Shown here piece after piece: positions 7,640-34,880 of a stretch of DNA of 64,000 nt. Within the stretch, counting starts at the first letter, position 1; every line of letters starts with the position of its first letter. The translations under genes were made by a program, and so were the position numbers. Below the pieces are notes generated by a model that was given only the letters and a program-made list of their open reading frames with translations, made no database searches and had not been told where the DNA came from. Source of the DNA: Takakia lepidozioides (Eukaryota > Plantae > Bryophyta); NCBI GenBank assembly GCA_030704615.1, contig CM060731.1:74090001-74154000 (forward strand), given 5' to 3'.

Positions 7640-8778
7640 AACCCTGCAGGCCGGAAGACAAACGTGGTGCTCGTCCACTTCCGAGAAGACTATACTTGCA
7701 AATGGACAACTCCATGAAGGACAATAAGAACAGATGGATGCTTGCTTTTCTATCCCTCCTGACCGCCAAAGATGTTTTTGAAGAAATCCAACTAGGGTTC
7801 CTAATGGTCGGACACACCCATGAGGACATCGACGGGTTCTTCAGCTACCTTTTGAAGAAGCTGAAGGAACGAAGCACCTACATTCTTTCGGATTTGATGA
7901 GGTCTTTTATGACCTCACAAGATCTGCAGTTCATTCCACAGATTATTCAGGAGGTTCCCGACTTCAAGAATTTTGTCAAGGGCTGTATTCTGGATGGAAA
8001 GAAAGCGTTGGTCGGGATTTTGGAGATGCACGTCTTCTGCTTTTTTAAGGATGCCGAGGGCTGGCCCGTCATGAAGTTCAAGAAGTCCGCTACTAATTTG
8101 GATTGGCTTCCAACAAACAATAGCGTGAAGATGTGGAAGTCCAATCCTGACGGGACTCCCAAGCTCCCTGAAGAAGACCCAGAAGCCGTTCCAAGGAGAC
8201 CTATCTGGGGAGTCGGGGATGACTCCTCCGAAAAACAATCATTCATTAAGAATGGAATAAAAAAATACATGGATCTTTGGACGAAATGAATGATGCTTGA
8301 CGATCATTACAGAGGTCGAATAGAACAATACAACCAGTACTGGGGAAACATTCTCGCCGAGCTGGATAAGCCAATCCCGGAAGCCTCCCGAGCGTATTCA
8401 GCTTCTTGAGGGATTCTGGCCGAAAATAAATTGGTCCAAGAATCATCACAGAGATGGAATCCATCCACATATAGTGCCAGATCCGGTCAAGGATATTGAG
8501 AAAGGGTTCTTTGTGCTCGTTCGCCCTCATGACCCAAGTACGTGTGCCCGGTCTGGATGGGAGTGACAATATTTGATGTGATCCACGAAAGAGAGGATCC
8601 TAATTTTAAAAAAGTGAAGGTGGAATGGTGGAGACCGAGAAAAGGTGGTAACCCAACAGACTTGGAAAGGTACAGGGACTGTTGGTCAAAACTTTGGGAG
8701 TATAACTTGACAGATCCTCCTCAATGGATCCACGTGAACAATGTTGTGTGGACAATGCCTCCACGCGACAAGGAATAG
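7640..8778 (+). mobile_element. Sola-like (DDD) DNA transposase remnant
   Basis: LYLQMDNSMKDNKN (7690-7730) and FLMVGHTHEDIDGFFS (GHTHEDID at 7810-7833) resemble the DN..NKN / GHT....D catalytic motifs; Trp-rich C-terminal piece 8542-8778; disrupted. Confidence 0.55.
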
Positions 8779-9590: not shown

Positions 9591-10520
9591 CAAAATGAAG
9601 AACCTAACTATTATGGAAGTGTAGTCATTGCATCGGACAAGTATTTAAATGAAAGACTCGTCCTTGGAACCTAGTATTAAGATACATAGAAAACAAAGTT
9701 CGATAAAAAAAGGTAAGTGCATGTCAATCCAAACCAAAGGCAAAACCTTGCACAAGGTGAAGGGCGAAGAGATTTGAATAACCATAAATAGTTATGGTTA
9801 TGGTATGGATACTTCATTCCCAGTTGCAGGGGAAGGGTAAGGGTTTACACGTAACAATGGCGTAGGGTTTTCCTTAGGGTTTTTGACGAGGGTTTAGGGC
9901 TTGGGTTGAAGGCAGAAATGGTGAGCATACATGCCGGAAGACTCGCACTCGCTACAACTTAGTGTGTGTTAGTATGGTACAAAATGGAAATTTGGTTACA
10001 TTGAAGAGATTTGGATAACTAAAATGGTTATGGTTATGGTATGGATAGTTGATTCCCATTTGCAAAGGGAAGGGAAAGGGTTCTGGGGTATTGGGTTCAG
10101 GGTAAATGTTTAGGGTTTTCTAGTAAGGGTTTAGGGTAAGGGTTTAGGGTTTTGGTTTAAGTTACAAAATAGACAGACACTTATGGAAAACTTCAGACTT
10201 CGCTAGAACTTAGTGTTGTTAGTAGGGTACTAGTAAGCAAAAAAAAAATGAATAACCTAATATTATGGACAAGTATTTAAATGAAAGACTCGTCGTTGGA
10301 ACCTTGACCTAGTATTGAGATATAACATAGAAAGCAAACTGTAACATGCCTAAATGCATGTCAATCCAAAACAAAGGAAAAAGCTAGCGCAAATGGCAAG
10401 GGAGAAGACATTTCAATAACCATAATGGTTATGGTTATGGTATGAATAGTTCATGGGCCATTTGCAGAAAAGGGTAAGGGTTAGGGGTAATGCTAACAAA
10501 AAAAGCAAGGGTAACTATTA
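9590..10520 (+). repeat. AT-rich degenerate tandem duplication with telomere-like (TTTAGGG-type) tracts
   Basis: 9590-9840 resembles 10245-10490; GTTATGGT(T)ATGG block at ~9790, ~10025 and ~10425; AGGGTTT/AGGGTA runs at 9835-9905, 10070-10160 and 10470-10490. Confidence 0.7.
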
Positions 10521-11873
10521 AAAAGGTATGTCAATCCAAAATCCTAATCTGCCAAAAAAATAAAATAAAATAAAATATACACTATGAGATTTGGAAAGAA
10601 AATAGTGTTATATAACAACGAAAAAGGACATGTGAAATTCCCTCTTAAACCAGGGCCAAAGATGAGAAGTATGAAAATGAAATGAAATGAAAATTTGGTG
10701 CAGAAAAGTCGTAGAGCTTAGAGGGAAAATGGAGGAAAACCTCACAGAAAAAACTTCAGGTTTGACAAATTGAAAAGTATGTCAACAACGATTGAGTAAG
10801 GCTCATCCTAATGGGAGACATCAATGGGAGAATTGGTTATGCGAAAAACAAGTCCAATGTTTCAGAGAATGACTGGAAATGGGCTATTTTCTTCCGTTGT
10901 TAAAAACCTCTTTGCCGAATTTAAAGACTCCAGTGGTCGTGCCCGCCCATTTTGTTCTTGTCTCATAGCAATGAAATGCAACATTTTATTGCAAATTTTG
11001 TGGCAAGCCACATCTATACAAAGTGTGTCGTAACTGTCATAGCCGGAATGGGGACTACTCTCCTACACCCTCCGAGGAACTTGCCCCGCCTTCCTCCTCA
11101 TCCCCCTCATCCCCCCCATCCTCCGAGCTCTGTGATGCATCAGTTCCACTATGCCTCTCAAAAATTCCGTCCTCTCCTTGGGGGACTATTCACCTCACCT
11201 CCTGGGAATCTTCTGCCTCTTCTCCCCCACTTTCCTCAGCAGAATCCAAGACAAATCTACGAGCCTGACGAGCTCTAATAGCTGCTGCCTCCTCCCTCAT
11301 CTTCATTTTCTTGAGGCTTGCCTCGTCTAAAATCTGTTGTACACGACTAGGTTCGGAAGACCTCATAATGGACACCGAAGCAAGCCGGGCAGCATAAGTA
11401 GGAAGGATGTAGTCCCTTTCTGGACTAGGCATGAAATCCCCCCTGGCAAAAAAAGACACGTTCCTCCTGCCCATGAACTGTGATGCAGACGTCCCTCCTG
11501 CAGTACTTGGCATCCTGTAGTAAGAACAAATCCACTTTAAGAATGTCAATACCAGCAGAAGCAAAAAAAGGTCTTTCAATGAAATAAGAGAGCGAAGGGA
11601 GGTGCCTCACGAAATCAGGAGGCAACTTATAATGCGACCACTCACTCGTAAACCGGGGGCTCCTCAGCCTCGATCCCAACTTGTACCTCCCCCTGCTCCT
11701 TGTCGGATTCTTCCTCATCCTCCGAGGATGCCTCTTCCTCTTTCGGCAGACATTCAGCCGCTGCAAGTTTGGAGTTGTGGAGGACAGTATCTGGCTCGAA
11801 GGCGAAGACATGCCTGTCGGACAACGTCCCTGCCCACATTGAGGCACCTGAGGGACAAAGTGGGCGGTTAGTA

Positions 11874-12045
11874 GCACGCCGGTTTTCCAGTGCAGGGCCC
11901 CTAGTGTGGCAGGCACCGAAACCGGAAATTCGGCGCCATTTTTACAGTTCCGGGCCCAGTCAGTTTTGGGACTTAGCCATTTTCAGCCCCAATCTGGAAA
12001 AATGGCGCTGAATTTCCAGTTCCGGGCCTAGTCATTTTCATTCCC
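11874..12045. repeat. Partial copy of the ~146-bp GGCGCC-core repeat array (same family as 30245-30915)
   Basis: GGCAGGCACCGAAACCGGAAATTCGGCGCCATTTTT...GGGACTTAGCCATTTTC is near-identical to units at 30530-30900. Confidence 0.9.
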
Positions 12046-12096
12046 TAAAATTTACCTCGTTTTCGGGACCTCATTTTGTGTGTTTCTTGAATGCAG

Positions 12097-13575
12097 GTAC
12101 TGCAAGTTCTCCCTTTTGGAGAAAGGACATCTGTCCTTCGAGCCGCCATTCTTCCTCGCATGGAGGAACCCTGGGGCTGACTCCATGTACACTGACGTTA
12201 TCGTGAAGGAGTGGCATCTGGAACATTTGCGCGACTGCCCTTGGTATGTGGACCTTCCGCCCGGCTCGCTGGACCCATCCGAGTTTCAATTGAAGCTGGA
12301 TGCTGAGGCTCGACAAAACCGGGCTCCGCTGCCTCCGCTGGGTCCAAAGGAGGCGAGAGCGCTTGCCCAGTCCAGGAAAGCGGCAGAGCTTGCTCAGGTA
12401 GGTATTCAAGAGAAATTGAATGAGAAGAATAAAGGACAAAAGAAAAAGACACGGAAACAGGGGAGTACAGTAACCCCCAAAAAACAGAAAACCACCGGGG
12501 CACCAGAGGAGGCGCAGGAGGGGCCCCAAGGGAGTGACTCCGACGACGACTTTGTGCAAGGTCCTGCGACTGCTGCTGCGGCTACCAAGTCACCGGTCGT
12601 CTGGGTTCCCAAGTTAGTTCGGTCTAGGACTGGCTCTGCCAAGAAGTTGGCATTTGAGGGCGAGCCTACACGGCGGTATTCGGCGGTGACGTTTCCGAAG
12701 AGGCCAAAGCTAGAACCCCCAACCATCATCCAATGTGTCAATGAGAGCTTCCTTGACGCTCTGGCTACCAGGGCGAAGAAGGTGGCACACAACAAGTCTG
12801 TGGAGGAGCAGAAGGGGAAAGCCAAGAAGAGGGCTCCCAGTACAGAGCCTAAAGACACCCCTGGTTTCGAATCCATGATGGAATTCTTCACGGCTGTGAG
12901 CACGGATTGCAAGAGCACTCGGGGTGGGGTTGAGGTGGAGAGAGTCTGCGATATGATTCTCCTCGATATTCCAGATGGGGAGCTGCTAGAGGGCCTGGAT
13001 GGTGTGCCCACCTGGAACAGGTTTAATGAGGACTACTGGAGAACCGGGTTTGGGCTGGCGGGGATGCTCTTGGATGACGGTGGATGTATGGTGGTCCTTG
13101 CCACAAGAGGGAAGACCATAGACAATGTTGTGGCAAGGTGGACACCGAAAAGTGTCACCCCGGTCCTCCTCAAAAAATGGTTCTGCATCAATACGCAGGG
13201 GTTGCAAACAGAGGGCCAGAGTGTAAGTTATCAATCTATTGCATTCATTTCATATTGTGGTGTATTTGAACTAGACCCTGGAGTTGATCCCTCTTTTGTT
13301 GGATGTGCCGACATTGGTGTTTGAGGCATATTGTTTTGTGAAGAGAGGGTCTACGTTCAAATTCCGCAACGACGGTCGTCTTGTCGATGCCGCTGTGGAC
13401 CCTGTTACCTACGATGTCCTCTACAACTATGTGCCCCACTCTAGTATGCCGAAGGACACAAAGACAGGCAGACCGTGGCGTTACAGCCGGACCCGGAGCC
13501 CTGCTTTCATCCAAACCCTCATGGAGACGTGCTCGGATGTCCAAGGGCGGATTCTTGACCTCACATGCGGCACGA
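12097..13575 (+). CDS. 3' exons of a putative beta-class N4-C/N6-A DNA methyltransferase gene (element-borne, possibly inactive)
   Basis: Acceptor TGCAG ending 12096; CDMILLDIPDG (DPPY-like motif IV at 12965-12976), then LLDDGGCMVVL, then WR...RSPAFIQTLMETCS..QGRILDLTCGT (motif X-I at 13551-13574); order IV before X-I is beta class; GTAAGT/GTAAGC donors at 13223 and 13576. Confidence 0.6.
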
Positions 13576-14449
13576 GTAAGCCTTCACGTGCACAGTTTGT
13601 CCCCTGGCCCGATTGCAATTGCATGCCGCATGCATTGAATATGTAACTATTTCAATTGTTGAGACTGTAAACTTGGCTTTCAGGGGATAGATGGAAATAT
13701 AGGGTACTTTGTTTGTCTTATTTGAAACATTCTTTTGCAAAGGTAGTGCAACTCAAAGCCCTGATTGGAGGCAATTCAGCTGTGTTGATTTATTAGTTTG
13801 TTTGACTTTCACACCTGGGTTATGCCTGATCTATTTGAGGAAGTCTTATAGGTTGCTCTGCTTTTGCAGGATGCAGAGGACGACTATTCATTGATAGTGA
13901 ATTTGAAGCGTAGAAACACAGTACTGAAACACAGTACAGATAGATTTGTTTAGAACAGATGTTGGTGTGGATGTAAGCGTAGGGGACAGCCTGGAAGAAA
14001 TTGTTCTTGAGGTATAAAGCCCACCTCCTTCTTTTACATGAATGACTTTGGTGGTATAACACCTATATAGCATTGGGTTCAAAGTTCTTACTTCAAAACA
14101 ATATCATTTAAGAGCTCTGTACTTGTACAAAGATTTGCAGTCTAGAAACGTAGGTCTTCAACAACTTGCTGGAAGATTTGCGAATGGCTTGCAAGCAGGG
14201 AGAACATCTTGCATGGATGCCGGCCTAGCAAACATTTATAACTATTTCATGGTGTTGAACTCTTGCACGACCAATTGATGCTTGCAGGTTCAGAAGAAGG
14301 CAGGACTTGCAGACAGTGACTGGACTTTCCTGGAAAAATTTGATTGCTTGTCCGCCGATTATGGTGAGGCCAGTCAGCGTAATTGAACTACACAAATGTG
14401 ATGACACAAGACACTACCACAATGATGGTTGCATATCTTGAATTGGAGG

Positions 14450-17400
14450 CATGGGGGGTGCACTCCAGCCAGTATGTACCAGCCACGTGCGTGCACAGGA
14501 GGGGGTATTTTAAACCCCCCCATGTACAACATTATACATACATGGGGGGGTTTAAAACACCTTAAATATAATATTACAGGAGGGGGTTGTTAAGTTTTAA
14601 AGGGTAGTCTAGTGGTAAGGACATTACTTAGGTCGTGATACACCGCGCGATCAAATCACGGGATCATTCTTTTTGTTTGTTTTTTTTCCTTTCTTTCTCC
14701 CCGCGATCTTTCTCCCCTTCCCTCCCGCGGGCTCTCTTCTTCCTCCCCTCCTCTCCTCGCCTCTCCTCTCCCCTCCTCTCCCACGTTCTTGGGAGAGTCA
14801 GTTTGGTCTTAGCAGGTCGTTTCAATCTTTGCCTGCTCAGCTGCACTGTGGTGGTTCTCAAAGACCAATCCGACATTACTTGACTACAGACACCAGCAGC
14901 ACACAGAAGAGAGGTCCTTTTGGGTTGATGGGAGGTCAAATCCTCCATGGGTCATGACACAATGTCAAGGACAACGTGGTGAGGGAACCTTCTTCTTCGA
15001 CCTATTTCAGCCTGTTTTGCCCTCTCATCAGACTTGGCCCTGAATTTGCAGCACGGAGCAGATCCTTCACGATTGTGGGACAACTGCAATCGCAAAGTGT
15101 GGCGTTTTCTTAAGGTACGATGTGAAGAAGTTTGTCCATCCTGCAAATGCGGGCTCTTGCCTCCTGTTAGTACCCTGATTAGGTGTTCTTCCTAATGTTT
15201 ACAAGGTTGTCAGCTTGGTCTTAGCAGGCCGTGTTTCAATCTCTGCCTGCTCAGCTGCACCGTGGTGGTTCTCACAGACCAATCCGACTTGCAATCGTCT
15301 GTCTAGAATTGCAGACCTATGTATAGGAGCAGGACACTGGATCAATATGTGTGGTCACATCCAAGTTAGGAGTCTTTGAGGTATAGAATTCAGACTAAGA
15401 ATCTGATTTCCTTGCTTTCTGATCTGTGTCTCTGTGTTCTTGAACATTCTCAACTTGCCAGCTCCCAGCCAAACCATTAGCACAAATGCCAAGCCTCCAT
15501 TTCCAGCCTTGCTTCAGACGCCGACCACAGTCAAGAGCGAAGGAGCAACTTCCCAGCCACTGGCAAGCACCCCCCAGGTATCTGACGGCATTACATGGAA
15601 CCCCAATAGCAGCACCATGTTCAAAGCTGCTCTTCAACAGGTGCTCTCTCCTTCGCCGATAAACACCAGAGAATGGATTCCTTTTAGTTAAACACCTGAC
15701 CTTTTCTTCCATGTGCTTTTCAATTTGCAGGTAAACAAGAAAGTTGGAAGACCTCCAGAATCGCGCGCCATTGGTGATTGGCTGGCTGTAAGTCTAACTT
15801 CATGAATTTCTTGTTATTCTCACATTCATGACCTGTACATATACCTAGAATAAGCATCTTGACGCCTAAGCAATCTATTATTCACCGTGCAGTCTAGGGC
15901 AATCTGGAAGCAATGTCTGCAAATCGGACAATTGTGTATAGAGTCAGGTCTGCTGGTTTGCCTTATATTCGAGAGTACGAGTTCCGATTGTGTTGTACAT
16001 GTACCACATGTGCAGAAGACACTGAATTTACCCCTGGATGCGCTGGTCCATGGAGTGGAGAAGGAAGGCAATGACAGCGAGCAGCTGGTCAGGCAGGTCG
16101 ACAGTCTTGGGAGTATTATGGCATGGCCGACCTTGTTGTCACCCCTGCACTTAAAGCGCAGAAAGAGCACCGAGTCCGTCACATCCGTAGACTCTTCATA
16201 AATTTTTTTCTGCATGAATGTTCGTTCACATGACTTCTACAAGTAGGCTCTCTAGGATTTGACAATGTTGCATGTGGTCACACTCGCCAGAAATCAGGCT
16301 TTGAATGAGGGAGGTTTGCCATCAGGTTGGGCTTGGTATTTTGGTCATTGTCATAGCCTGGGTTGATTTGTTTAGGGGAAGTATGACTACAAGACACAAG
16401 CAGCACACACAAGAGGTCCTTTTGGGTTGATGGTTGGTCAAATCCTCCATGGGTCATGACACAAGGTCAAGGACAAGCTCCAGATTTCAAGCTCCAGATT
16501 ACCTATGATTCCCTGTGGAAGGATAGATACAAGAAACCTGCATGGGTAGATAATCAACTTGAAGCCGTAGCAGCAGCAGTACAATTGATAAAATCAGGCA
16601 CTGCTGCTGAAGGCACCTTCTTCAACATATTTCACCCTGTTTTCTCTTCCTATCAGAATCGGCCCTAAATTTTCATGTTGAATTCTGCAAGTTAGTTGGT
16701 TGAGTGAATCTTTTTCTGACCCCAGACAATGGTGGGACAACCGAGGCAAAAAGGTGAATGCCTATCAGATTACCAGATGTCATTCTGAACACTGCCCCTA
16801 CCCTGGTGGACATGTATGCCAAATGTGGATGCATCGAGGATGCCAAGGGATCAGTGTTCAACTCTATGGCTGAACGAGATGTGGTGTCGTGGAGTGCGAT
16901 GCTTGCAGGGTATGCACAATAGGGGTGCGGGATGGAGGCTCCAACCTTTGAGCAAATGCAATGCGTGTGCAAGCCTGGGAGCTCTGGAAAAGGGGAAAGA
17001 GGTCCATGGTGACATTGTCAAAGCTGGAATTGTACCAGATGTCATTCTGAACACTCCCCTGGTGGACATGTATGCCAAATGTGGGTGCATTAAGGATGCA
17101 AAGGGAGTTTCCATGGCTGAACGAGATGTGGTGTCGTGGAGTGCGATGCTTGTAGGGTATGCACAGCAGGGACGTGATATGGAGGCTTTGGAGACCTATG
17201 ATCAACTGATGGGGGAAGGGGTGAAGCCCGACCACATCACGTTTGTGTACATTTGCAATGCGTGTGCAAGCCTGTCAGCTCTGGAAAAGGGCAAAGAGGT
17301 CCATGGCAACATTGTCAAATCTGCAATTGTATCAAATGTGATTCTGAACAATACCCTCGTGGACATGTATGAAGGGAGTGTTCGACGGTATGGCTGAACG

Positions 17401-18411
17401 AGATGTGCTGTCGTGGAGTGTGATGATTGCAGGATATGCACAGCAAGGGCGCTGGATGGAGGCTTTGGAGACCTATGAGCAAATGATGTGCGAAGGGGTG
17501 AAGCCCGCGCTTTGCATTGCATGATGTTGAGGAAGAGCTTAAAGAATCGTCTCTTTGCCAACACAATGAGAAGTTGGCCATTGTTTTTGGGCTTATCAAC
17601 ACACCCTCTGGGATGTCTTTGGGGATCATCTAGAATCTTCGGATGTGTGGTGATTGCCACACAGCCACCAAATTCATCTCAAAGATAGCTAAGCAAGAGA
17701 TTGTTGTACGGGATGCAAACCGCTTTCACCACTTCCAAAATGGTGTTTGTTCTTGTGGGGAGTATTGGTGAAATGAAATGCTTGTCACCTAATTGAATGT
17801 ATTGAACTCTGTCAGCTGCGAGTCAGGTTGGACTCCAACAGTGGCAGCAAAGGCGCACGAAATCTCTTTTTGGAGAGGAATTCTCAACAGTAGGTTTTGA
17901 ACATAAATGGACCTTGCGAAGGTTGAAACTGTAGAACAAGTTCAGAAACTGTCCTAGTTGATGAACAGAGGTACAGTGACTGTATATCAGAAAATGGAAA
18001 CTTTCTTCAGGCCTCTTGCACATCGGGCATTGACAATGTCCTTTTCCTCTCTGCATCTGATTATTGTTCAAAGTGAGATTCCACAGCAAGTTTTATGGCA
18101 AACAGATTTTTTTAATTAATTTATTAGATTTTATTCTATTTTTAAATAAATAAACTTGATATAATATAAAAACATACATATACATATTTGAGGGTATTTT
18201 TTAATTATTGAAAAAAGGAAATATACATACAGAAGGGGTACTTTTTTAAAACTACAAATTTCTATATATTTACAGGAGGGGGTTTTATAATCTTCAAAAT
18301 GTATGTACAGAGGGGGTATAAATGATCCAAGGACCCGTATACAGGGGGTTTTTTTTATTAGGCGGCGAACGTACGTGATACGGACATTTTATAAAGAGTG
18401 CACCCCCCAGG
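14450..18411. mobile_element. Non-autonomous hAT-type element (3962 bp) carrying host gene fragments
   Basis: TIR CATGGGGGGTGCACTC (14450-14465) / GAGTGCACCCCCCAGG (18396-18411), 15 of 16 match; 8-bp TSD ATTGGAGG at 14442-14449 and 18412-18419; subterminal ACAG(G)AGGGGGT motifs at both ends. Confidence 0.9.
16770..17771 (+). pseudogene. PLS-class PPR plus DYW deaminase fragments (organellar RNA-editing factor), pseudogenised
   Basis: Repeats LVDMYAKCG...[14 protein letters not shown]...GVKPDHITF...NACASL.ALEKGKEVH; DYW tail HNEKLAIVFGLINTP...[18 protein letters not shown]...[21 protein letters not shown] ending 17771; deletions and stops. Confidence 0.92.
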
Positions 18412-19309
18412 ATTGGAGGATGCAGTCTTTCCGTCTACAAATGATAGATGTGATAGTTCCACATGATGTACTGTGAAGACTTTTACTCCTTTGCATGGAC
18501 GGATTTAAGCGGCATATTTGGACGGATTTAACAGCAATTTAGCTGGTGCACGTTGGGAACTGCCTCTTTGGGAATGCTTTCATCTTTACTGCAGGTGTTA
18601 TACAAACGGAAGCGAGCTACATTTACTTATGAAAGCCCTCTGATTCGGGGTGAATCACTCCTGCAACAGATGATATCTCTCTTTCTGCCTGAGCCCAAGT
18701 TCCATCCACAGACGCAGAATGAGGAGTCTGGAAAGAACTGGTTAATTGCCTCACACATTCCGTTCTGTAACTTCTGAATAGTGCCAGATGAGCAATTTGA
18801 CGTGATGCATGCGAATCTTAATCCAATAGAGCTGCATTTACTACTCACGATTTTGAGATTTGAGAAAACTGAATGATAGCACTTCAGAATTCCTAGAATG
18901 TTTAGATCTTCCTCACTAGCCCGTAACTTCTTTGGACGGGCGTGCATTGGTAGGACTTTGCCCCCAAAAGCTTTAATTGTTGGTTAGTAATTGTGGGGTA
19001 ATTGTTCACTTGTCTTTCCTTCTGCCGCAGGGGAGGTGTGTTGTGCTAATCACGACGTACATCTTGAAACTGATAAATCTCAGCCTGTGTCATATCTACA
19101 ACTCAAGAATTGATTAAAAAATAATGCCTCGAAGTACTCTAGCCACAGTGACAGCACAGATCACATCCACTTTGGTACTGAAAGTGGAAGGATCACAGCT
19201 CGTCGTTCTAAAACATTGTACATGAGGAACAACATCTATAGCCTAGAGAGTCGCACTCCTTGCAACTTCCAAATCTAAGTTCAAATCCGTGATGTTTCAG
19301 TGATGTTTT

Positions 19310-21930
19310 GTGCGTAGCAACAAGCCTGTCAGATTGTGTTCAAAGATGGCTAATGAGAGGGGAAGCTACAAATTATCAGCAACCATAGCTGGGAAATATG
19401 CACCATTGGTACTAAGGAATCGCATGCTTCATGAGCAAACTCCGAAATCAGAATTCTCTCATAGACGAGAAGCATGGGCGAGTAATATTGATTTGTGGGT
19501 GGATGGATCTTTGTATCCACACAACCCCGTTGACGGCAAACGTCCACAATTTCGGACAGTGAGCGAGTTTCTAGAATTTACTGGGGATGGCAAGAGCGGC
19601 CTACTGGGTTACTCTGAAAATCTTGCCGCAAATCATACAAGAATTGAATTGAATTTCGTTGAGGCTCAGAAAGAGATATTGTCGTTGCGTGAGCTGGTCA
19701 GGAGATTGCAAGATTCAGATGAGGAGAGAGAGAGACTCTTACAATTCAGCAACACAGAAACGTCTCGTAGACAAAGAGTAGAGGAAGAAAATGGTCAGAT
19801 TATGTTAGCAAGTGAATCGTTGAAAGTGGAGGTATCAGCTCTGAAAGAGCAATATCACAGCATGAAGGCATCTTACGATGAGTGTTTAGGCCGCCTGAAC
19901 GTTGATGTACTGAGCTCCAATGAGCGTGATCAAATGGAGATAGAATTTTGGATAGAGATAGAATTCGCTCAAAGAAGAGCACAAAAGAAAATTGGATTCG
20001 ATTTGCTCTGAGCTACGCAGAACCAAGGCGACCTTGAAGCGACGGGAATTGAGGATGGAAAAAATGGTGAGGACTTCCTATGGGTAAAGGGGTGTCGTCA
20101 GACCAAGGAAGGATGTGGCTGAATTGGCGCCTAATGGTGGTCATACAAAACGTTTGAGGCGTTTAGCAAGAGCTATCATTGCCCCAGCTACTGCGAGAGA
20201 AATTCAAAGTGCAAATGCAACCCAGGGAACGAGAAATCGCTTGTGTGGAAGTAAAGAGACACAAGTGCAGACTGCGAAGGTGTTCGCCTCTATGTTGTCC
20301 CAGACATAAATTAAGTCAATGTGCGAATCAGCGAAGTTGAGCAAAGTTGGTGTGCATATGGCCAACTACTACTTGGATAAGATTGGGGAGAAAGTAGGAG
20401 CAAATGAGATTCTAGAAACTTGCGATCGGCAAGGTATAATGCACAATGGATATGGAGCCATCTATAAAAAGTTCAAAATGTCTGCCAAAGCTTCTGGTCG
20501 GAGCCTTCGCATTGGTTGCTTGCCAAATCCTCATAAGGTGTCATTGCTTCGGAAAGCGTTGAGTCTCAAGCTACATGAGTATGTCGGCGAATACTACTGC
20601 ATCAACAATAGCCTTGAGATTCCAGCCACTGCCAAGTCAAAGAGCAAAGAGCCTGTCAGAATAGCGCTCAATCATAATAATTCCATCTTTGTCGATGTGG
20701 AACAAGTGCAACGCACAATGGTCGAGCTCTACGGCATCACACCCGCAGGTAACACCTTAATTTTGTAGTGTTGCAAGAGATGTAGGGTAAAGCTTCTGAT
20801 AGGAATCGATTGATTAAACACTTGGGGATTGTAGCAACTCCCCACAACATCTTAAGTTCTCTTGACCTACAGATTTATTGAGGATTGGGCATTGAGGACC
20901 TGGGCATTGAGGATTTGGCTGTGTTTGGTTTCAAAATTGCAGGGACACCCTCTTATTTTTGTCATCAAACTAGATGAAGCTGAAATTGTGCACGCTCAAA
21001 AGATGGAGAGAGTGTCTCTAATACTGATGAACCGGGCTTTGAATACTACGATTGAGCCAAACAGTGAACAATTCTTCTCAGTTCAGTCAGAGAGGGAGAT
21101 TTGGCCCATCGCTTCATTCCAAGTGGTGCGGAAAACCTATGAAACATTGAGTTGGGTCTTCTCGCAAATTATCATTCCTGCGTTGATTCAAGCACAGGAG
21201 CAAGGACAGCCACTGGATGTCCCTGGTATTGGATCCTTTCAGGTGGAATGGCATATGGCGGCAGATATGAAGACAATAAAAGTGATGTACAACTTGGGAG
21301 CTGGAGCAAATAGCTTACACAGTTGCATCTACTGCAACCAAGAATGCATGAAGCCTGTAGTGGGCACCATTGCACAAGCCCAAGCAGCCATAAAGAAACG
21401 AACCAAGTACACTTGGAATGAAGGGTTGTTTTTAAGGAAAGTGGCAACGCAACCACTCACAGGGGGTGCAACTTCAGGACGTTGGAAGCCCATTTTGCCC
21501 ATACCACTGGACAGAGTCTACATATGTACCCTACATGCTTTCAATCGAGTGATTGAAAAGATTGTTCACTTGCATTTCATTCATATTTAGACAATTCGTG
21601 ACAAAGCTCTCCAAAAATTGGCCGTTGATGAGATGCAGAAGTTGTTGTCACTCACGGGTGCCCATAGAGGGAATGTTCAAATTTTTAAGGACGAAGATTT
21701 GTCTCGGAGGGCAAACAATGTCCCAAACAAGCCCTTTTTTAGTGGAGCCTATGCATTGAAGCTTTTCAAGGACAATCCTGTTGCCATAGAGCCTCGGAAG
21801 TTATATGTTGATGCCGTGAATGCAGAAAAGAACAGAATGAATAATGGAGCAGCACGAAGAGAGAGATTGGAGCAGTGGCATGCCTTGGATCGACTGCGGC
21901 CCTATTTCAATGGTCTCAGATTTGAGGTTA
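19310..21930 (+). mobile_element. Transib/RAG1-core-like transposase gene, disrupted and 3'-incomplete
   Basis: N-terminal coiled coil, then FVIKLDE (~20960), WHMAADMK (~21250), SCIYC (~21325), CTLHAFNRVIEKIVHL (~21525); resembles the D...DxK...CxxC...LHxxxRxxE pattern of Transib/RAG1 cores; probable intron ~20749-20943. Confidence 0.5.
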
Positions 21931-22149
21931 GCTATTTCATGAGCATGAGCGGCATGAGCGGAGTAGTAAGACAATCGGTTTTCATGAGCAGAAGTACAAA
22001 TTCTGCAAATAAAAACATTAAAAAATATTATTTTAATGGGATGTGTCAGAAAGGGGAAAAAAAACAAAAAAAAAACCAATATAATATTCATTGTTTGAAG
22101 TAGAAATTGTAGTTTTGAGAGCCGTGCTCATGATATTTTGTCTTCTGCT

Positions 22150-22445
22150 CATGCGAATTCCGAGCGACATCTGCAAAAATGGCGCCAAATTTCGCGGTAA
22201 TAGGTTTTGCAAGCAGAAAAATCGGCGACGTATTGCGCGGTAATAGGTGACTCCAGCGAAAAATGGTGCCGAATTTCGCGGTTATAGGTCCCAACTTCAT
22301 TGAAGTGTAAGCCCAAAATTTGGAAATGTGGCGCCGAATTTCGGTACATGGTGTCGGGCATTGCACAAATGTTGGGCAGTTCTGGGCCATGTAACTGGAA
22401 ATTCGGTGCCATTTTTCCAGAAATGGCCCCCTCAATTGCAACTGT
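22150..22445. repeat. Degenerate cluster of AAAATGGCGCCRAATTT cores
   Basis: Cores at ~22175, ~22260, ~22325 and an inverted one at ~22398. Confidence 0.75.
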
Positions 22446-22530
22446 TGGAACTCAGGGACGAAGCAGCCTGCAATGGCTGGGTCTGAGGAACTGGAAATGA
22501 GTAGGCCGGGACGTCTGTGCGTTGCACCAT

Positions 22531-24927
22531 TCAAAATCCTGCTGCAGAAATAGCATCCGCCTCATTCTGAGAGATGTTGCAACCCGGTGCAACAGGCCAG
22601 ACGCCCGGAGGCTCCGGCATTCCCTGAATCCCGTACTTGGGCTTGCCAAATACACAGGTCATTATGTCGTGCCTACAAAACCAAAACGTCTGCGTTGTGG
22701 CGTGAGAGAATGTGGGAGTCAAAAATCTGCCGCTGAAACAAGGTGCAAGTACAACACCGTGTGGGTTCCTCCGAATCATCTCACCACAGCGTGCTCTCGT
22801 ATCCACCCGGATGGCGCAGCACTTCCCTCGAAATGCCGGCAATGTCATTGCAATTCTCCACTGTGACTCCGACACTCTTGTCTCCACAATGGGTATGTTG
22901 TACTGCGTTACTACAGATGGCTCGTTATGTTCCTTGGGCACGTGCCCTTTGCTCAAAGGAGATGGCGATCTTGAACGTGCAGGAATTGCGGTGCTCGACG
23001 AGACCTCCTCGGGCAACATCACGGGACCACGAGGGAGCGTGCGAATATTCTTGTCAGCTCGCCATGAATCCTCTTCTCCGCCAGGTTCCTCGTCAAGTCT
23101 TCGTCTCACTGGACGGGTGTGAACATCTTCTTCCAAGTGTTGGCCTCTTCGAAGCAATGGCGTGTCCCGAAGGCCCTCTCGCAAGGTTGCCGCCCACTTG
23201 CGAGGATTCTTAGATCTGGAGGCAGTCCGCATCAGCATTTCCTGCCTGTCCGGCCCCAAGCCCCACTGTTTCCCTTTCAATAACTCGTTGTACCTGCATT
23301 GTTGCATAATTGACCTGACAATGTCCTCCGTTGTGGCAGTGAGGATGTCCACCAGATGCGCCGCAGAGGAGGCACGCCAGGAAGAATGTACTGATTCGGC
23401 CATGTTTGTTGTCGACATGTCGGTGTCGGAGTCCAGACACATTTCTTGCACATGCACATATTGAGGTTACAAGCAAGTTACAAAGAACGAGTAGCATAAT
23501 ATTCAACGTGACGCGAATTCGTCCAACTCACCTCCCGCATATAGTTGTCGAACTGGATGAAACGATAATGCCACCATGCTAGCCAACTGATCATTGCTCC
23601 CTCGTCTGATTTCTTTACAGCACCTGACGTTGTCCACCAAGCCCGTATACATGCAAATTGTGTCTCTGCATCATCCAAGGTGGGAGCACGCTTCCATGCA
23701 AGACACATGGAACGGTGCTCCTCTCTGAAATCTGGCGCCACGAGCCGGGTTGTGTACTGCGACAAGCTCTGCAGAAAATGGAACCCACAAGATCTCTCAT
23801 TGCCTTCCATCGGAACATTGGGGTCTTCCCTGTACACCCTTCGGATGGCAGCCCAATTTGCTTGTGCGTTGTCCGCCATGAAACCACGGAAATTGGGAGG
23901 GGGCAATCCCGCCCTGGCCATCTTTTTGTTTATTCCCTGCCAAAGAAGCATCTCCGATTGTGTGTCCTCTCCTTTCATCTCACAAATAGCAATTGTCATT
24001 AGCATCCTGCAGTGGGTGTCGTAGGCATGTGCAGCCATTGTCACCCACTGGTGATTTGTAATTCGTTTGATATGGTCGAACATGACCCAACTGTTTGACA
24101 AGTCCCCACTCATCATCCGGTCAACCAGTTCGACGCCGCTGCCAGGCCCACACGTGGACATTTTGAATACCAAACAACAATCTGCCTCAGTCCCTTGTCC
24201 ATGAAACCTACTTCCATGAATGTAGTCATATCCACATCGTCGCTTCACCTCCAGAATGGAGTGCATATCCGAGCCACGCCCAATTTTCTGTTTGCAGGAG
24301 ACAATGTGATTTCGGACATTCGGTGAACAGACGTGGGACACCGACTCCAGCAATGCCTCCATTTCCTTCTCATCGAGAGGAACTCTGTCGGAGCCGTCTT
24401 CCGACAGTGCCTGATCTCCAGGATGATCTCGGAACTTCCATGATCTCGTCGGAGTCGGACAGGTTGTGAACAACCCGGTTCTCGCTCATCTTTATTGATG
24501 GGTTCGGCTCTGGATTTACTTCGTTGCGGACTTCTCTCTTTGAGGTACCCACTCTCTGATTCGCGGATTGTTTCGTGGAAGGCGGCAGGATAGAAGGCGC
24601 ATTTGGCGGGCAAATGAAGTCCCCAACAGCCCTGTATATGACGTTGTCCGATAGTGGAACTCGCCATTCCCTGCCGTCGCCGAAATCATCGTGGAGCACA
24701 ACAATACTTTTGACTACAACTCCGTTTGAATCCTTCCTTTCCTCCAAAAATACCGACCCCGGTTTCAGGTGGTATCGAACGCAGAGATATTTCTCCATCA
24801 CCCGGCAGATCTCCCCTCTGCACGGAAATGTAGCTCTATGCTCGTGAGGAGGGCAGTACACTATAGCGCTCGGGTTTTCTGCCATGGGAGTTGTGCATAC
24901 AAGACTGCCAAGACGGCGTTCGGACAA
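22531..24927 (-). mobile_element. Mutator/MULE-like DDE transposase gene with intron and frameshift
   Basis: WVMFDHIKR (D1, ~24075), GFMADNAQANW (D2, ~23870), SCGFH (CxxH, ~23785), TTNMAESVH (E, ~23400); GTGAGT donor at 23531; Cys-rich C-terminus. Confidence 0.75.
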
Positions 24928-25299
24928 GCGCCCTGGGAGAAGGGGGGATGCAACGAGGGGAAGGAATGCAGGGCTGATTTTTGCAAGCGACGAAGCCTAT
25001 TCACGAATCCGGGGAGCCCACTCTCCCGAAAATCCACTGTCAGAGAGTTAATGAACCTTGTCTGCGGAATGCGGCCCCTAGCCTTTGCGCAATAACTGCC
25101 AACGGTATGCAATCAGAAGGTATATGACTTGTGCAGATGCGCTGCGCAAACCAATCATTACGGCGTCTGACAAGAAGCGTGGGGGCGCGAGCGTGCAAGC
25201 ACCTTCCCCATGGACAGAGGGAACTGACAGAGGTGGCATTCCAGTGGGTCTGATTACAAGATTGAGTGCCAGAACCTCGCCGCCAAAAGTCAACATACA

Positions 25300-26545
25300 A
25301 CAGCGGCGCCGAATTTGCATCCGAGGCCGGTCGGACGATTTCGTCTCAAGGGTGAGTCGGTCACCTGGCCGACAGAGAACATCACCCGGATGGAAAAACG
25401 GCGCCAAATTTCCATCCGAGGCCCGTTGGATGAAGTCGTTTCGGGGGGAGAGGGCGACACCTGGCCGACAGAGAACATCCCCCGGATGGAAAAACGGTGC
25501 CGAATTTCCATCCGAGGCCCGTTGGATGAAGTCATCTCGGGGGGAGAGGCCGACACCTGGCTGACTGAGATCATCCCCCGGATGGAAAAACGGCGCCGAA
25601 TTTCCATCGGAGGCCAGCCGGATGAAGTCGTTTCGGGGGGAGAGGCCGACACCTAGCCGACTGAGATCATCCCCCGGATGGAAAAACGGCGCCGAATTTC
25701 CATCCGAGGCCGGCCAGATGAAGTCGTTTTGGGGGGAGAGGCCGACACCTGCTCGACAGAGAACATCGCCGGATGGAAAAACGGCGCCAAATTTCCATCC
25801 GAGGCCGATACCTGGCCGACAGAGAACATCCCCCGGATGGAAAAACGGCGCCGAATTTCCATCGGAGGCCGGCCGGATGAAGTCGTTTCGGGGGGAGAGG
25901 CCGACACCTGGTCGACTGAGATCATCCCCTGGATGGAAAAACAGCGCTGAATTTCCATCCGAGGCCCGTTGGATAAAGTCGTTCGGGGGGAGAGGCCGAA
26001 ACCTGGCCGACTCAGAACATCCCCCGGATGGAAAAACGGCGCCGAATTTCCATCCGAGGCCCGTTGGATAAAGTCGTCCCGGGGGGAGAGGCCGAAACCT
26101 GGCCAACTCAGATCATCCCCCGGATGGAAAAACGGCGCCGAATTTCCATCCGAGGCCCGTAAGATGAAGCCCGTATCGGCACTTCTTCAACAATTTATAG
26201 TCGTTGCATCAAGTTTTTCGCGTTTTTTTGTATGGCTACACACTAAACTTGGAGTTTTTTGCCTACAGGCCACATTTCGCACGTTATTCCCACCATTCTG
26301 GTCCGCTAAAGACAAATTCGTTGCCGGTTTTCCATCGATGAGGTGGACCGAATTACCTGCAGGATGGAAATTCGGCGCCGGATTTCCATCCGTCCGCGCT
26401 CCGAATTACCTGCAGGATGGAAATTTGGCGCCAGATTTCCATCCGGCGTCTCCTGGATGAGAATTGCTCGGGCGGAGGGAGGGCCTCGTTGTGTCATACT
26501 TCATCCGTTGGATGAAAATTCGGCGCCGATTTTTTCCATCCAGCG
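25300..26545. repeat. 96-bp tandem array (about 9 units) with a 32-bp imperfect palindrome per unit, followed by inverted cores
   Basis: CGGATGGAAAAACGGCGCCGAATTTCCATCCG recurs about every 96 bp from ~25385 to ~26150 (32-aa periodicity in the ORF track); inverted cores at ~26310-26545. Confidence 0.95.
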
Positions 26546-27523
26546 GGCGATTGACGAAGTCTCGGGGGGATATTCGGTGGGCGCCTATGACCGACCTCCA
26601 TACATTAATGGCGCAGTTGGGCATTAAATGTCCTCCGCCGTCGGTTTTGAACCAGGCTGGCGACACAGGACGCCTTGGAAACCTGATGCTAAACTTGGAT
26701 GAACTTCTATTCGAGGCATGTACGCACACATTTGGCGAGATCTTTTTTCTTTTGCTGGGACTTATGCCGCGTGGAGAAGGGCGTGGCTCTCCTGAGAGAG
26801 ACCCCACATCCAGACCGCGGCGGAAGCTGAAGGCTTTGTACTACGGGCGACGTCCAACCTCTCGCATGGCCAAACTTAAGCTCCAGCAGGAGATTTCATT
26901 GTCTTGCTCACAACCCGCGCCAACTGAAGCCGAGCACTCTCAAGCAAGCCACTACCTCTTTCGCTTTGTGTAACACGTACGATTTTCTTCGTTTTTTGGT
27001 TTGTTTTCGCATCTTCAGCCTGGCAGCCCTGGAAGCGCATGGTGCATCGCAAAAGCAGGAGTTGTTGAGAAGAATGATCAAGGTCAGAGTGGTTAGAAAG
27101 GAGCCAAGTCGTTGCTGCATTCAGATTTGCAACAGGGTGCACACCTCGCTGTAGATAACAGGTTGCATCTCGGAATTAAGGAAATCCATGCTGAGCTGAG
27201 AAGATTGTCTGAGCAGATGAAGTGCCTTCAAAACATTTCACCTTGTTTTCCCGTCTTATGGAATTCGTGTTCATTTGTTCATCGTGTTTCATGTTACTGG
27301 TTGAGTAAACCTTAGATAGTTTGCAATGCGTGTGCAAAGCCGGCAGCTCTGGAGTAGGCTGCTTATGCATGTCATTCTTAGGCATTGGTTTGATTTGTTT
27401 TCATTGTTGTTCCACGATTGTTGCGATGGTGGTTGTGGTGCTCGTTGCGATGGTGGTTTTCATTCCGATGTTGGTTCTCACGATTTTTGGGGATGACAGA
27501 GTGACGACGACCCCGGCACGCTG

Positions 27524-30158
27524 GTGGTATCATTGACAGCTCCAACTGCTCGAGCAGTCACTCCAAAAGCCGCTACTCATCGCATGTTTGGATCGCCCAA
27601 CTTGGGGCGGGAGGGCAAACTAAAACCTTTTGTTGGTGGACGGGAGGACCTGCAGCGAGAGTACGACAGAATAGGCATTGGGGAGGTTGGTGCAGGCGGC
27701 ATGGCAGGTGAAGGGCATCGGATGAGGACAACAGATCCGGCAATGGAGGATGTTGATACACATGCAGTAGGGCCCGCCCACGCAAAGAAGAAGAAGAAAG
27801 CCAAGCACATGCAATCCCCGGCGAGAGAGCCGTCACGGGCTGCGGAGGGGGGAGTGAGCAGGGCGCGCAAGGGTGTCAGTTCGCCTCAATCAAAGGTGGT
27901 CGTCCTAGAGGGCTCCCCTGTTGCTACCGCTAGTAAGAAACAGAAAGCCCGTGAGAGGGCAAAAGAGAGGGCAAAAGAACAGGCGAGGGAAAGAGAAAAG
28001 GCCACTGAAGAGGCCAGGGGTGTCGAAATGACAGATGCCCATGTAAGCGAGGGACGCATAGAGACGGTGGATCCCTCCAAGACACCACAAAGAGGCAGTA
28101 ACACACTGGTTACACCATCGCGGGCAGGAGCAGCCCCCGCAATTACCCATACGGTGGAGAGTGGAGGAGGGGAAAGAACACCACAAAGAGCACGGATTGT
28201 GCAAGTTCGAGGTGAAGCCGGGGAGAGGGCAGTAGAGACGGGCAGAGTGCTCGAGGTGGTTCCGGCGGTGGTTGACCATGTTGAGGATGACGAGAGGGAG
28301 CTTTTTGACCAGGATTACATCCTCCCGGACATCCCCAGGCCCCAAACCCGGAGCATACAGGCTGGATTTGGCGGTCCGGGTGTGCTGCCGGAGAACCCCC
28401 CTGCAACAGACGTCATGTCGAAGGCGGATATGAAGTTGGCCGCTGCCAAGATGTTGGAGGCAACCCACAACAACATTGGCAGGGTCCTGGGGGGCATGGT
28501 GTACCCGGTCAAGCTTCGGATTCCCCTTTGCCGCTTGGTTTCATTGCAGGTGGTCAGACCTGCCCTCCCAGGCGATATCGACAAGCTGAAATTCTCTTTC
28601 CGGGAGGGATATCGAATGGGGTCTGCCGCGTTTTACGTTTCCATGGAGAACGACCACAGAGCTTCTCGTGCCCACACTTCCGATGAGGTGGACAAATGGG
28701 GTCCCCATTGGCAAAGACGAAATGAGGAGTTCGAGAGATTGATTGCTACTGATCCTCTTTTCCAGCACTTGTCCGGAAAGATGTTTTACGTGTGGGACGA
28801 CAATCATCGCCTCCTGGCATGGATGGAGTACATAGCCCCCAACGACCTGGATTGGTATTTCGCCGTGGAGTGTGTTGTGCTCAAGGTTGCGGGGCCCAAA
28901 GATTGCAGTCTTCTCAAAGCGGCAATGGCAGACATCAACTCGTAAGTTACAATGCTTCTTGCTTTGGAACTTTGAATTTGAAACAGTCATTTCATTGCCA
29001 ATCGTCATATTTGTTGCAAATTCTCATTTCTGTATTGTTTAATGGAAATGTGGCATTGCAGGGTGACTGAGAATGCCTTCATTGCCACCAACTTGTCGCA
29101 TATGCTCGTCCGAGCGAAGGATGTCGGGAAGCACGGGGTGCAAGAGTTTGCCAATTCGCTCAGTGCCGACCTCCTGCGCAAGTCGGAGGCAAAGGCAGAC
29201 AGAACCTGGTATAGGCTGAGCATGGACGCCATGGTGGACTACGTATTTCGGGTAAAGCTCCTCACTGTTTTGTTGAGCTAATCTGTCTTTCCTCCCCCAA
29301 TAGAAGAAAAAGTGTTGAGCAGGATCTATAATCTTATGTGCGCATTCTTGACAGACAAAAATTCAGCAGGATTTGGCACATGCGCGGAGGTTCTACATGG
29401 AGTCAGAGGAGAAGAAACTAACCCTCCCAGCAATAGAATCGTATCTCAAAGCTGCGGAGGCAAAGGCCCGCATCAAGTACAAGTCGCGGATGGTAAAGTA
29501 CGTGGCCATAGCTGATCCCGCCCTTGGTGCCGATTTTCTGGTGGAGGTGGGGAAGCACTACTCCCGCGCTTTGAAGCCCACGATGACATTGGAGAAGCTA
29601 CATCGTCTAGCCACATCCTGTGTGGATGCAACAGAAAAGGTTATACATTCTTAACCAAATTGTCGTGGCAGCAATTTGTTTTTGTGGTGTTTGGCGCTTA
29701 CTAATATGTTGGGTGGTTGGACAGACCCGGTGGCTCCAAATTTGGAATGGTTCCCAAAGTACAAGGGACATGTGGAGCTTCCCCAAACCCGACAAACTGT
29801 CTGACCCCACATTCGACATGTGGATGAACCGCATGACATGGTGGTTTCAGGTACTTTCTCACGCTTCATTTGGGGCGTCTACTCTTGTATCGGATGGATT
29901 TATTGTATTTTTTGAGGAAAGCGGTCTGATGGAGAATCTCCACAGGTGACAACGAATGCGCAGGAGCAGCTTGACACACAAGCATATCAGTTCAAGCTAG
30001 AGATTTCTGGTGAAGCTGAGAGCCTACGCAACTATGTGACGAGGTACTTTCTGCTCTTCAAAACCGACCTATTCTTTCGAGAGATACCCCATGCCCGCCG
30101 GAGCCACGTTCACCGACCAGCCGAACGCGGACAAAGCGGCAATGCGCCTTTTGTACAG
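27524..30158 (+). CDS. 5' exons of an element-borne gene with a ParB/sulfiredoxin-like domain
   Basis: Low-complexity N-terminus, then IPLCRL...VRP...DIDKLKFSF..GY...FYVS...MFYVWDDNHRLLAW (28781-28820; cf. ParB/Srx DGxHR.A); GT-AG exons ending 28941, 29062-29251, ~29360-29639, 29725-29850, 29946-30158; probable 1-bp frameshift near 30075. Confidence 0.6.
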
Positions 30159-30244
30159 GTACATACGCTGTGCCTTTTCTTTTAGTCCTAACATTTCCAG
30201 GATGTAAGAGGCCCTATGTGGCGCATGAAAATTAGTTGTGGTCC

Positions 30245-30915
30245 TAGGAAAAATGGCGCCGAATTTCCGAATTCGGGCCCTGGGGGATGGCTGTCCAGGG
30301 GGTGCCTGGCACTCAGTCCGGAAATTCGGCGCCATTTTTCCAATTGCAGGCCCAGTCAGATCTGGGACTTAGCCATTCTCGGCCCCAACCTGGGAAATGG
30401 CGCCAATTCGGCGCCATTTTTCCAGATCAGGGCAAAGTCAGCTCTGGGACTTAGCCATTTTTGGGCCCAACCTGGGAAAATGGCGCCGAATATCCAGTGC
30501 AGGGCCCCGAAAATGGCTAAGTCCCAGAGCTGGCAGGCACCGAAACAGGAAATTCGGCGCCATTTTTCCAGTTCCGGGCCCAGTGAGTTCTGGGACTTAG
30601 GCATATTCGGCCCCAACCTGGGAAAATGGCGCCGGTTTTCCAGTGCAGGGCCTCAAAAATGGCTAAGTCCCTACAGTGGCAGGCACCGAAACCGGAAATT
30701 CGGCGCCATTTTTCCAGTTCCGGGCCCAGTCAGTTCTGGGACTTAGCCATTTTCGGGCGCAACCTGGGAAAATGGCGCCGAATATCCAGTGCAGGGCCTC
30801 GAAATGGCTAAGTCCCTACAGTGGCAGGCACCGAAACCGGAAATTCGACGCCATTTTTCCAGTTCCGGGCCAAGTGAGTTCTGGGACTTAGGCATATTCG
30901 GCCCCAACCTGGGAG
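30245..30915. repeat. ~146-bp tandem array, each unit internally inverted
   Basis: AACCTGGG recurs at 30469, 30615, 30761 and 30906; each unit has two opposed GGCGCC cores plus the AAAATGGCTAAGTCCC / GGGACTTAGCCATTTT pair. Confidence 0.95.
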
Positions 30916-32835: not shown

Positions 32836-33191
32836 TGTCAAGTTAAATAAGCACAGTGTGAAAACAACTAGAATAAAGCTAGTTATTTGTATTTAACACT
32901 TGGATTTAGGTCAAGTGTTAAATCAGGTGTCAAGTTTAGTTTGACACCTGAACGGCCTTATCTTCACGAGAGCGGCAGTCGCGTGGCTCATCTCTCTCGA
33001 GTTGAGCTTGCGCGACCGAGCTCCTGCATCGTTTAGGACTGAGTGTGCTCATGATGGGAGTGTAGGTTGTTGTGGGGTGGAGTCCCCACAGCTTGGGGTG
33101 CCCCTGGCTCGACTTCTGTTTTAACGAGTGATGTTGAGGGATTTCATATTTCTTGTGTTGAGAGTGTGTGTCCTTTCAAGCTTTCTTATCA
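32836..33191 (+). repeat. Terminal repeat A, 5' copy (356 bp)
   Basis: Matches 44330-44685; I count 4 transitions and no indels. Confidence 0.97.
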
Positions 33192-33207
33192 CTCGAGAGA
33201 GATGAGC
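33192..33207 (+). promoter_or_regulatory. Putative self-priming primer-binding site
   Basis: CTCGAGAGAGATGAGC, directly after the repeat end, is the exact reverse complement of 32986-33001; no TGG tRNA-type PBS. Confidence 0.8.
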
Positions 33208-34769: not shown

Positions 34770-34880
34770 CAATTCCTGGTTTGTAGTCTCTAGGTCGAAT
34801 AAGGCCTGGGCTACAGCCTCTTCAAACTCATCAGGCTCGAGCCCCTTCTCCTTCTGAATCTTCCTGCGTGCTGTAAACAT
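34770..34880 (-). pseudogene. RPS7: Captured fragment of 40S ribosomal protein S7 (eS7), first 37 codons, inside the retroelement 5' region
   Basis: [37 protein letters not shown] matches the plant eS7 N-terminus; similarity stops afterwards. Confidence 0.85.

Follow-up and report, generated by a model that had tools for sequence, protein, structure and literature searches.

A dead copy of a ParB–methyltransferase-like fusion gene, likely an accessory gene of a Mutator-like transposon, in Takakia lepidozioides

A 64,000-nt stretch of the Takakia lepidozioides genome (GCA_030704615.1, contig CM060731.1, positions 74,090,001-74,154,000 of the forward strand; hereafter the window, in whose coordinates positions are given) contains a 19-kb block that begins and ends in the same array of 146-bp repeats. 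Exons of a gene resembling ParB and sulfiredoxin (Srx) run into the array at the right-hand end of the block, and exons resembling a beta-class DNA methyltransferase emerge from it at the left-hand end. Do they belong to one gene and, if so, how did its second half come to lie to the left of its first? An initial annotation took them for circularly permuted halves of one fusion gene on a mobile element that had been circular or tandemly arrayed. Having compared copies by means of contigs from sequencing runs X1, X2, X5, X8 and X9 aligned to the window, we conclude, with a probability of about 70% for the reading as a whole, that the window holds a dead copy of a repeated fusion gene, likely an accessory gene of a Mutator-like transposon, that has likely been broken in three places, with part of it inverted. 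Runs X8 and X9 are presumed to be RNA, so a contig from them that lacks introns may represent a processed copy in the DNA. Features are listed in Table 1.

The splice join and the three pieces of the gene

The donor (AG/GT at 30158/30159) and the acceptor (TGCAG/G, before the exon start at 12097) are both present and both in phase 2, and the 146-bp unit is common to the two ends (3.5 copies at 30405-30914 and a partial one at 11877-12029), all as initially annotated. When joined at these sites, the five ParB-half exons and two methyltransferase-half exons form a single frame of 1217 codons with one break. One frameshift had been allowed for, and one there is, although not the 1-bp change near 30075 that had been proposed: the window copy has lost two bases behind 30107, which are present in other copies (24,432 of 38,418 depth in X1, 236 of 236 in X5 and 4.4 of 4.4 in X9). 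A junction of the LLYR/YCKF type had been suggested as something to look for in spliced reads, and a contig of a related copy does cross from 30158 to 12097: this 1179-nt spliced contig from X8 aligns to 12094-12887, and the 30 letters left unaligned before 12094 match the window at 30126-30155 with 2 mismatches. Because none of 100 shuffles gave such a match, the join is beyond chance. The junction also falls within a motif, R-h-h-[YF]-R/Y, common to proteins of Riccia and Adiantum. The exon ending at 30158 is spliced to the exon at 12097, and the join is genuine.

The gene had been thought to end near 13.9 kb, but it continues to the left of the block: the next exon starts at 11847 on the minus strand, and the final exons, which the first account lacks, occupy 11.05-11.85 kb in inverted orientation, beyond the 19-kb block. 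A 499-nt DNA contig from X5 (record 9, depth 195) runs from 13295-13630 on the plus strand directly into 11875-11714 on the minus strand, a DNA contig from X2 joins the same places (the opposite-strand joints are 13633-11873 in X2 and 13630-11875 in X5), and a 770-nt spliced contig from X8 (record 17) carries exons 6, 7 and 8 in succession. The order in other copies is therefore exons 1-5 (27.5-30.16 kb), exons 6-7 (12.1-13.58 kb) and then exon 8 (from 11.85 kb leftwards).

At both breaks the pieces are complementary to within 3-6 bases, and every exon is present once. The array, interrupted at 30914, picks up at 11877 six bases further on in register, modulo whole units; intron 7, when rejoined, is an array-free 84 nt, beside neighboring introns of 85-120 nt, with 3 bases common to both sides of the break. 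Since the pieces match almost end to end, one gene is tiled by the three of them. We had also considered 13870-14385 as the last methyltransferase exons, and rejected this stretch: the element-type cover from contigs stops at 13650, and these exons splice to one another as another gene. Separately, a more divergent transcribed relative in X8 and X9 splices the end of exon 6 to the exon-8 region (13224 / 11838), omitting exon 7 and with it motif I.

The copy in the window is dead. It is a pseudogene because its frame is broken, its exon-7 acceptor is mutated (C at 13309, where other copies have A) and its exon 9 has an in-frame stop at 11190-11192. The start codon of exon 1 is not fixed; the first in-frame ATG is at 27584.

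A plant gene family with two prokaryote-like domains

The two halves are adjacent elsewhere, as the initial annotation had supposed they should be: they form single chains in Riccia and Adiantum, and moss-associated contigs carry them across an intron at the same codon. A 1207-residue Riccia sorocarpa protein aligns to residues 341-1088 of the joined model (E 6e-31), and two Adiantum nelumboides proteins match both halves. For metagenomes we used the best 80 of 232 confirmed stretches, grouped into 49 clusters and taken by inference to be moss-associated; some clusters are 79-87% alike and so are not independent. Downstream DNA reaches 3.3 kb or more in 18 clusters. Of these, 13 have the exon that follows the junction and the regions of motif IV and motif I in order on one strand, 17 have at least one of the three, and 13 have the tail, counts made with profiles that had been iterated on the same loci. 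A tblastn search with the window alone found the post-junction part in 18 of the 80 loci and the motif I part in 14. Of 11 loci other than the window, 6 have the acceptor AG at the same codon, and the remaining five are decayed or rearranged. The junction intron is short in the metagenome loci, so the 146-bp array is particular to the lineage of the window. The ParB–methyltransferase fusion is a repeated, spliced plant gene with a conserved intron position.

The N-terminal domain is supported by structural modeling as having the ParB N-terminal/sulfiredoxin fold. Its core has 395 relatives clustered at 50% identity, and the model of this core (predicted local distance difference test, pLDDT, 89.5) has PadC, sulfiredoxin, Noc and ParB as top Foldseek entries (E 0.01 or above), whereas the top eight VIA entries (Z 5.3-7.7) are all ParB/Srx-family chains; KorB is also among the structural matches. 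Like the bacterial ParB, Noc and KorB cytidine triphosphate (CTP) clamps and sulfiredoxin, the domain combines this predicted fold with an acidic-G-N-H-R motif and near-palindromic repeated sites nearby; unlike the clamps, to which (as to sulfiredoxin) it is 9-19% identical, it has no identified helix-turn-helix. The nucleotide-site motif, acidic-G-x-H/R-R, is well kept among 101 sequences (D in 79 or E in 14, G in 89, N in all 101, H in 93 and R in 82); where 89 of the 101 keep G, the copy in the window has D.

The methyltransferase-like domain has its motifs in permuted order, with motif IV preceding motif I in the joined model. PF01555 matches the Riccia relatives at E 1e-5 to 5e-5, just below the gathering cut-off, and about half the members of its language-model neighbors carry PF01555. 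The model of a Riccia relative (pLDDT 43) matches M1.HpyAVI, CcrM, MTA1 and METTL3 at E values of at least 0.003. We take the domain to have a beta-class methyltransferase fold, more weakly backed than the ParB/Srx fold. A tblastn search of phages with the Riccia domain gave weak matches only, the best at E about 0.1, in genes annotated as DNA methylases. It had been expected that profile searches would recover both folds. The ParB/Srx fold did emerge from structure search and PF01555 from the Riccia relatives, just sub-threshold; single window exons matched neither ParB nor methyltransferase families in Pfam and nothing in NCBIfam. A word-based search found no long relatives of the ParB half, and sequence and profile searches of the PDB gave nothing useful.

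The nearest language-model neighbors of the ParB core (28397-28942) are fungal DUF3723 clusters and a cnidarian cluster; in the two top fungal clusters, 31% and 47% of members carry DUF3723 (language-model score 0.95). This hints at a ParB/Srx fold for DUF3723, a lead only: the window exons have no Pfam match to PF12520. Our literature search found no paper joining DUF3723 with ParB. Proteins with DUF3723 are reportedly discussed in papers on Starship elements.

The carrier element and how the locus was rearranged

The fusion gene is likely an accessory gene of a Mutator-like transposon. Divergent from it is a putative DDE transposase gene with the motifs VMFD, FMAD, CGFH and TTNMAES (D, D, CxxH, TxNxxES), which we read by eye as those of Mutator-like elements; libraries gave no confirmation, the stretch at 22.5-25.0 kb having no Pfam, NCBIfam, PDB or plasmid match. 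Upstream DNA reaches 6 kb or more in 16 clusters; 5 of these 16 have a relative of this transposase there, on the opposite strand, and none has one downstream or on the same strand. Summed contig depth, an indicator of repeats and not of copy number, is about 2-5 x 10^5 in X1 and 170-510 in X5 for most bins of the gene pieces and the open reading frames (ORFs) at 22.5-25.0 kb, at least 100-fold higher than in low-copy bins (270-530 in X1 and 0.7-1.9 in X5).

The element also carries a 22-bp site that is self-complementary at 16 of 22 positions around GGCGCC. All 27 of its starts in the window fall in three clusters inside the element, and 30 base shuffles gave none; each 146-bp unit of intron 5 carries two of these near-palindromic sites, opposed. 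Beyond the 3′ end of the gene, at 9635-10492, are three related blocks of ~200-400 bp with telomere-like AAACCCT runs, a candidate subterminal region. Short imperfect inverted-repeat structures at 21930-22155 and 14504-14561 are possibly miniature elements or element ends.

How did the pieces come apart? A history of three breaks with flipped pieces is in our view probable. The element would originally have been on the minus strand. Its breaks would have fallen at three places, namely the intron-5 array, intron 7 and a point in the flank ~8 kb past the transposase end, after which the two freed, adjacent pieces would each have rejoined in reverse orientation. The scars, six bases lost at the array break and three common to both sides at intron 7, resemble those of end-joining repair.

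Misassembly at a repeat-rich locus would give a similar picture, and one break does lie within a tandem array of a high-copy family, with none of the aligned contigs listed confirming the new junctions. We consider this very unlikely: the junctions contain no gap letters, the break in intron 7 is not within tandem repeats, the few bases lost or in common at the breaks appear to be repair scars, and the moss-associated contig L066 likewise has the exon after intron 7 inverted relative to its ParB half (3667-3966).

The initial annotation was right to see a single intron-containing gene, a fusion of ParB/Srx-like and beta-class methyltransferase-like parts, that sits on a repeated element and is broken in its repeat-filled intron. 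Its further step, in which a circular or tandemly arrayed element recombined within that intron and the 19-kb block is the permuted element, drew on the block beginning and ending in one array in near-perfect register, and an arrangement formally equal to the three-break product would indeed arise if element and flank formed a 19-kb circle that went back into its original place the other way round. "Circular permutation" thus fits the geometry, but not an element circle: the last exons are inverted beyond the block, ~8 kb of it is unrelated host or low-copy DNA, the second break is off the array, and both ends join array DNA to other DNA, unlike the product of a homologous crossover. With X2, X5 and X8 contigs joining 13.63 kb to the inverted exon 8, the circular or tandem origin is largely refuted. 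That three separate decayed copies landed near one another is highly improbable, since for all that the family is high-copy and its fragments are common, the pieces fit to within 3-6 bases at either break, and each exon is there exactly once.

Several observations count against our reading of a dead, rearranged fusion gene on a Mutator-like carrier. For the rearrangement, none of the aligned contigs listed crosses any of the three new junctions in the window arrangement (those of X2 and X5 stop at 13650), no Takakia DNA contig was seen to cross the entire intron-5 array, and the window yielded no upstream exon end for the host gene at 13940 that would back the predicted former join of 13634 to 30915. 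For the carrier, the class of the transposase rests on motifs read by eye, 11 of the 16 clusters have no transposase within their available upstream DNA, and comparison of the candidate element ends turned up neither a terminal inverted repeat nor a target-site duplication, which is 8-11 bp long in Mutator elements. For the domains, the fold matches score low in absolute terms (every Foldseek E is 0.001 or higher, and Z stays below 8), the methyltransferase model is of low confidence with weak matches, and many of the sequences behind the motif IV counts given below are decayed copies.

Table 1. Features of the fusion gene, its carrier element and the DNA caught in the block (window coordinates)
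Feature	Position	Strand	Remarks
Exon 1 frame	27497..28941	+	Low-complexity N-terminus, then ParB/Srx-fold domain about 28510-28941
WD(G/D)NHR motif	28793-28810	+	Within exon 1 ParB/Srx-fold domain
Exon 2	29062..29251	+	GT-AG sites and frame
Exon 3	29355..29639	+	Helical region common to Riccia and Adiantum proteins
Exon 4	29725..29850	+	
Exon 5	29946..30158	+	2-base loss behind 30107 in window copy; phase-2 donor at end
Intron 5, 5′ part	30159..30914	+	Holds 146-bp array; break at 30914
Intron 5, 3′ part	11877..12096	+	Array picks up 6 bases further in register (modulo whole units); acceptor follows
Exon 6	12097..13222	+	Helical domain, lysine-rich linker, methyltransferase motif IV region
Motif IV region DIPDG	12965-12979	+	Exon 6
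Exon 7	13311..13575	+	S-adenosylmethionine (SAM)-binding motif I, DLTCGT at 13557-13574
Intron 7, 5′ part	13576..13633	+	Break at 13633
Intron 7, 3′ part	11848..11876	- (inverted)	Branch-point-like TACTAAC and acceptor
Exon 8	11646..11847	- (inverted)	Post-motif-I remainder of methyltransferase fold, acidic tail; basis X8 record 17
Exon 9	11055..11514	- (inverted)	Inferred from splice sites and homology; conserved C-terminal tail
Putative Mutator-like DDE transposase gene	22534..24996	-	Divergent from fusion gene; VMFD, FMAD, CGFH, TTNMAES motifs
96-bp array and more 22-bp sites	25299..26535	.	Between transposase and fusion gene
Four 22-bp sites	22173..22418	.	Past transposase 3′ end, near inferred element end
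Flanking non-element DNA in block	13634..21900	.	Host exons, pentatricopeptide repeat (PPR) fragments, low-copy transposase-like gene
Host exons	13940-14385		Within carried flank
PPR fragments	16.8-17.8 kb		Within carried flank
Low-copy transposase-like gene	19304-21930	+	LDE, AADMK, CxxC, CTLH motifs

The low-copy gene at 19304-21930, which had no Pfam or PDB match, has motifs reminiscent of Transib/RAG-like transposases. Elsewhere in the window, 32836-44685 is a young long terminal repeat (LTR) retrotransposon (LTRs of 356 bp, 98.9% identical) whose polyprotein has a C5 DNA methyltransferase domain (PF00145, E 3e-12) ahead of the reverse transcriptase and a PHD finger (PF00628, E 2.5e-11) after the integrase. 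At 5987-8289, a NIF/FCP1-like phosphatase ORF on the minus strand lies beside a DUF7869 ORF on the plus strand, probably another DNA transposon with cargo.

Possible function and relation to known systems

What might intact copies do? The methyltransferase-like domain keeps a SAM-binding motif I, which is DLTCGT in the window and of the type DF[AV]GGWG in 7 of the 9 Riccia proteins checked, and more decayed in moss-associated copies; the acidic residue that follows is kept in the window and Riccia proteins. Its motif IV is another matter. After 36 of 128 rows were dropped for gaps over the motif, the canonical [DNSH]PP[YFW] was found in none of the remaining 92, and it was found nowhere in all 128 sequences. 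The family motif is [DN][VI]Px[NG], with D or N at position 1 in 84 of the 92, the first proline in 1 and an aromatic residue at position 4 in 3. Probably most of these rows are decayed copies, but a canonical motif IV is likewise missing from the long proteins of Riccia and Adiantum and from L014, a copy in good condition. As described in the text of PMC4738411, which gives the catalytic motif, this aromatic residue holds the target base, and land plants have few such enzymes. For the rotifer N4CMT, changing SPPY to APPA abolishes activity, according to the published account (PMC8885841). Because the canonical motif is present in 0 of 92 relatives, active writing of N4-methylcytosine (4mC) or N6-methyladenine (6mA) is doubtful.

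Our tentative proposal, held at somewhat less than even odds, is that intact copies encode a DNA-loading ParB and a SAM-binding pseudo-methyltransferase that act on the element's own chromatin. The ParB domain, with its N-H-R residues kept, would load as a dimer on the candidate 22-bp sites, which would be parS-like, and the methyltransferase-like domain, which retains the SAM motif but not the base-stacking aromatic, would be a DNA- or chromatin-binding pseudoenzyme, shielding the element from silencing instead of writing standard 4mC or 6mA. The sequence motifs could also be those of a catalytically active methyltransferase of N4-cytosine or N6-adenine, its motif altered, by which the element's own DNA would be marked, as would suit the kept motif I and acidic residue, the D or N at position 1, and the same role proposed, in the description of it, for an Ectocarpus protein (PMC12477816); given the near-absence of the first proline and of the aromatic, and the part that this motif plays in the characterized enzymes, this is unlikely. 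A broader idea is that liverworts, mosses and ferns share ancient, undescribed Mutator-like transposons with a ParB-parS system of their own, in which a nucleotide-gated clamp on palindrome arrays would bring in an amino-methyltransferase of non-canonical type to mark the element or shield it from silencing; the DUF3723 proteins of fungal Starships would then be distant relatives sharing the ParB fold. We regard this idea as improbable.

The closest known systems are algal. The account of the 21.5-kb Ectocarpus DNA transposon Sola1-1_Ec32 gives it an accessory gene, opposite the transposase, for a 1104-residue ParB-like and N4C/N6A methyltransferase protein (PMC12477816). The plant gene is like it in having fused ParB and methyltransferase domains opposite a DDE transposase, in the window and in 5 of 16 metagenome clusters, and unlike it in that the transposase is putatively Mutator-like and the hosts are land plants, versus Sola-1 in a brown alga; the likeness is one of domain architecture. 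Red-algal Plavaka, Mutator and Zisupton elements are described as carrying the accessory genes PAG2 and PAG3, with ParB-like and PF01555 domains, and tandem inverted-repeat arrays beside the ParB gene are proposed in this Bostrychia preprint as its binding sites (bioRxiv 10.1101/2025.02.11.637652). Common to both systems, as far as that description goes, are ParB and PF01555-type domains as transposon accessories and repeat arrays near the ParB gene, but in the algae the domains are in separate proteins (ParB with a 2-oxoglutarate oxygenase, the methylase with SET), whereas the plant gene has both in one protein. Marchantia MpDN4MT1 and rotifer N4CMT, reported as host enzymes with an intact SPPY and demonstrated activity (bioRxiv 10.1101/2021.02.12.428880, PMC8885841), share with the plant fusion a prokaryote-type amino-methyltransferase fold of the beta class in a eukaryote; the fusion family differs in its [DN][VI]Px[NG] motif and its association with transposons, and "ParB" is absent from the main texts of both reports. 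By analogy, the plant fusion may work like the algal accessory genes, and its catalytic motif places it outside the canonical N4/N6 methyltransferases. A literature search, which left out most subscription papers, found no ParB–methyltransferase transposon gene from a land plant.

The rearranged copy is in itself a local accident, and the weight of the finding lies with the family: 395 clusters at 50% identity, liverwort and fern members, a conserved intron, a transposase partner and candidate binding sites. The missing catalytic motif cautions against annotating its members as a source of 4mC or 6mA in plants, while the candidate 22-bp site and the transcribed copies give a concrete handle on self-binding. 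With this family, a class of ParB-plus-methyltransferase transposon accessory proteins that has so far been proposed for algae is extended to land plants.

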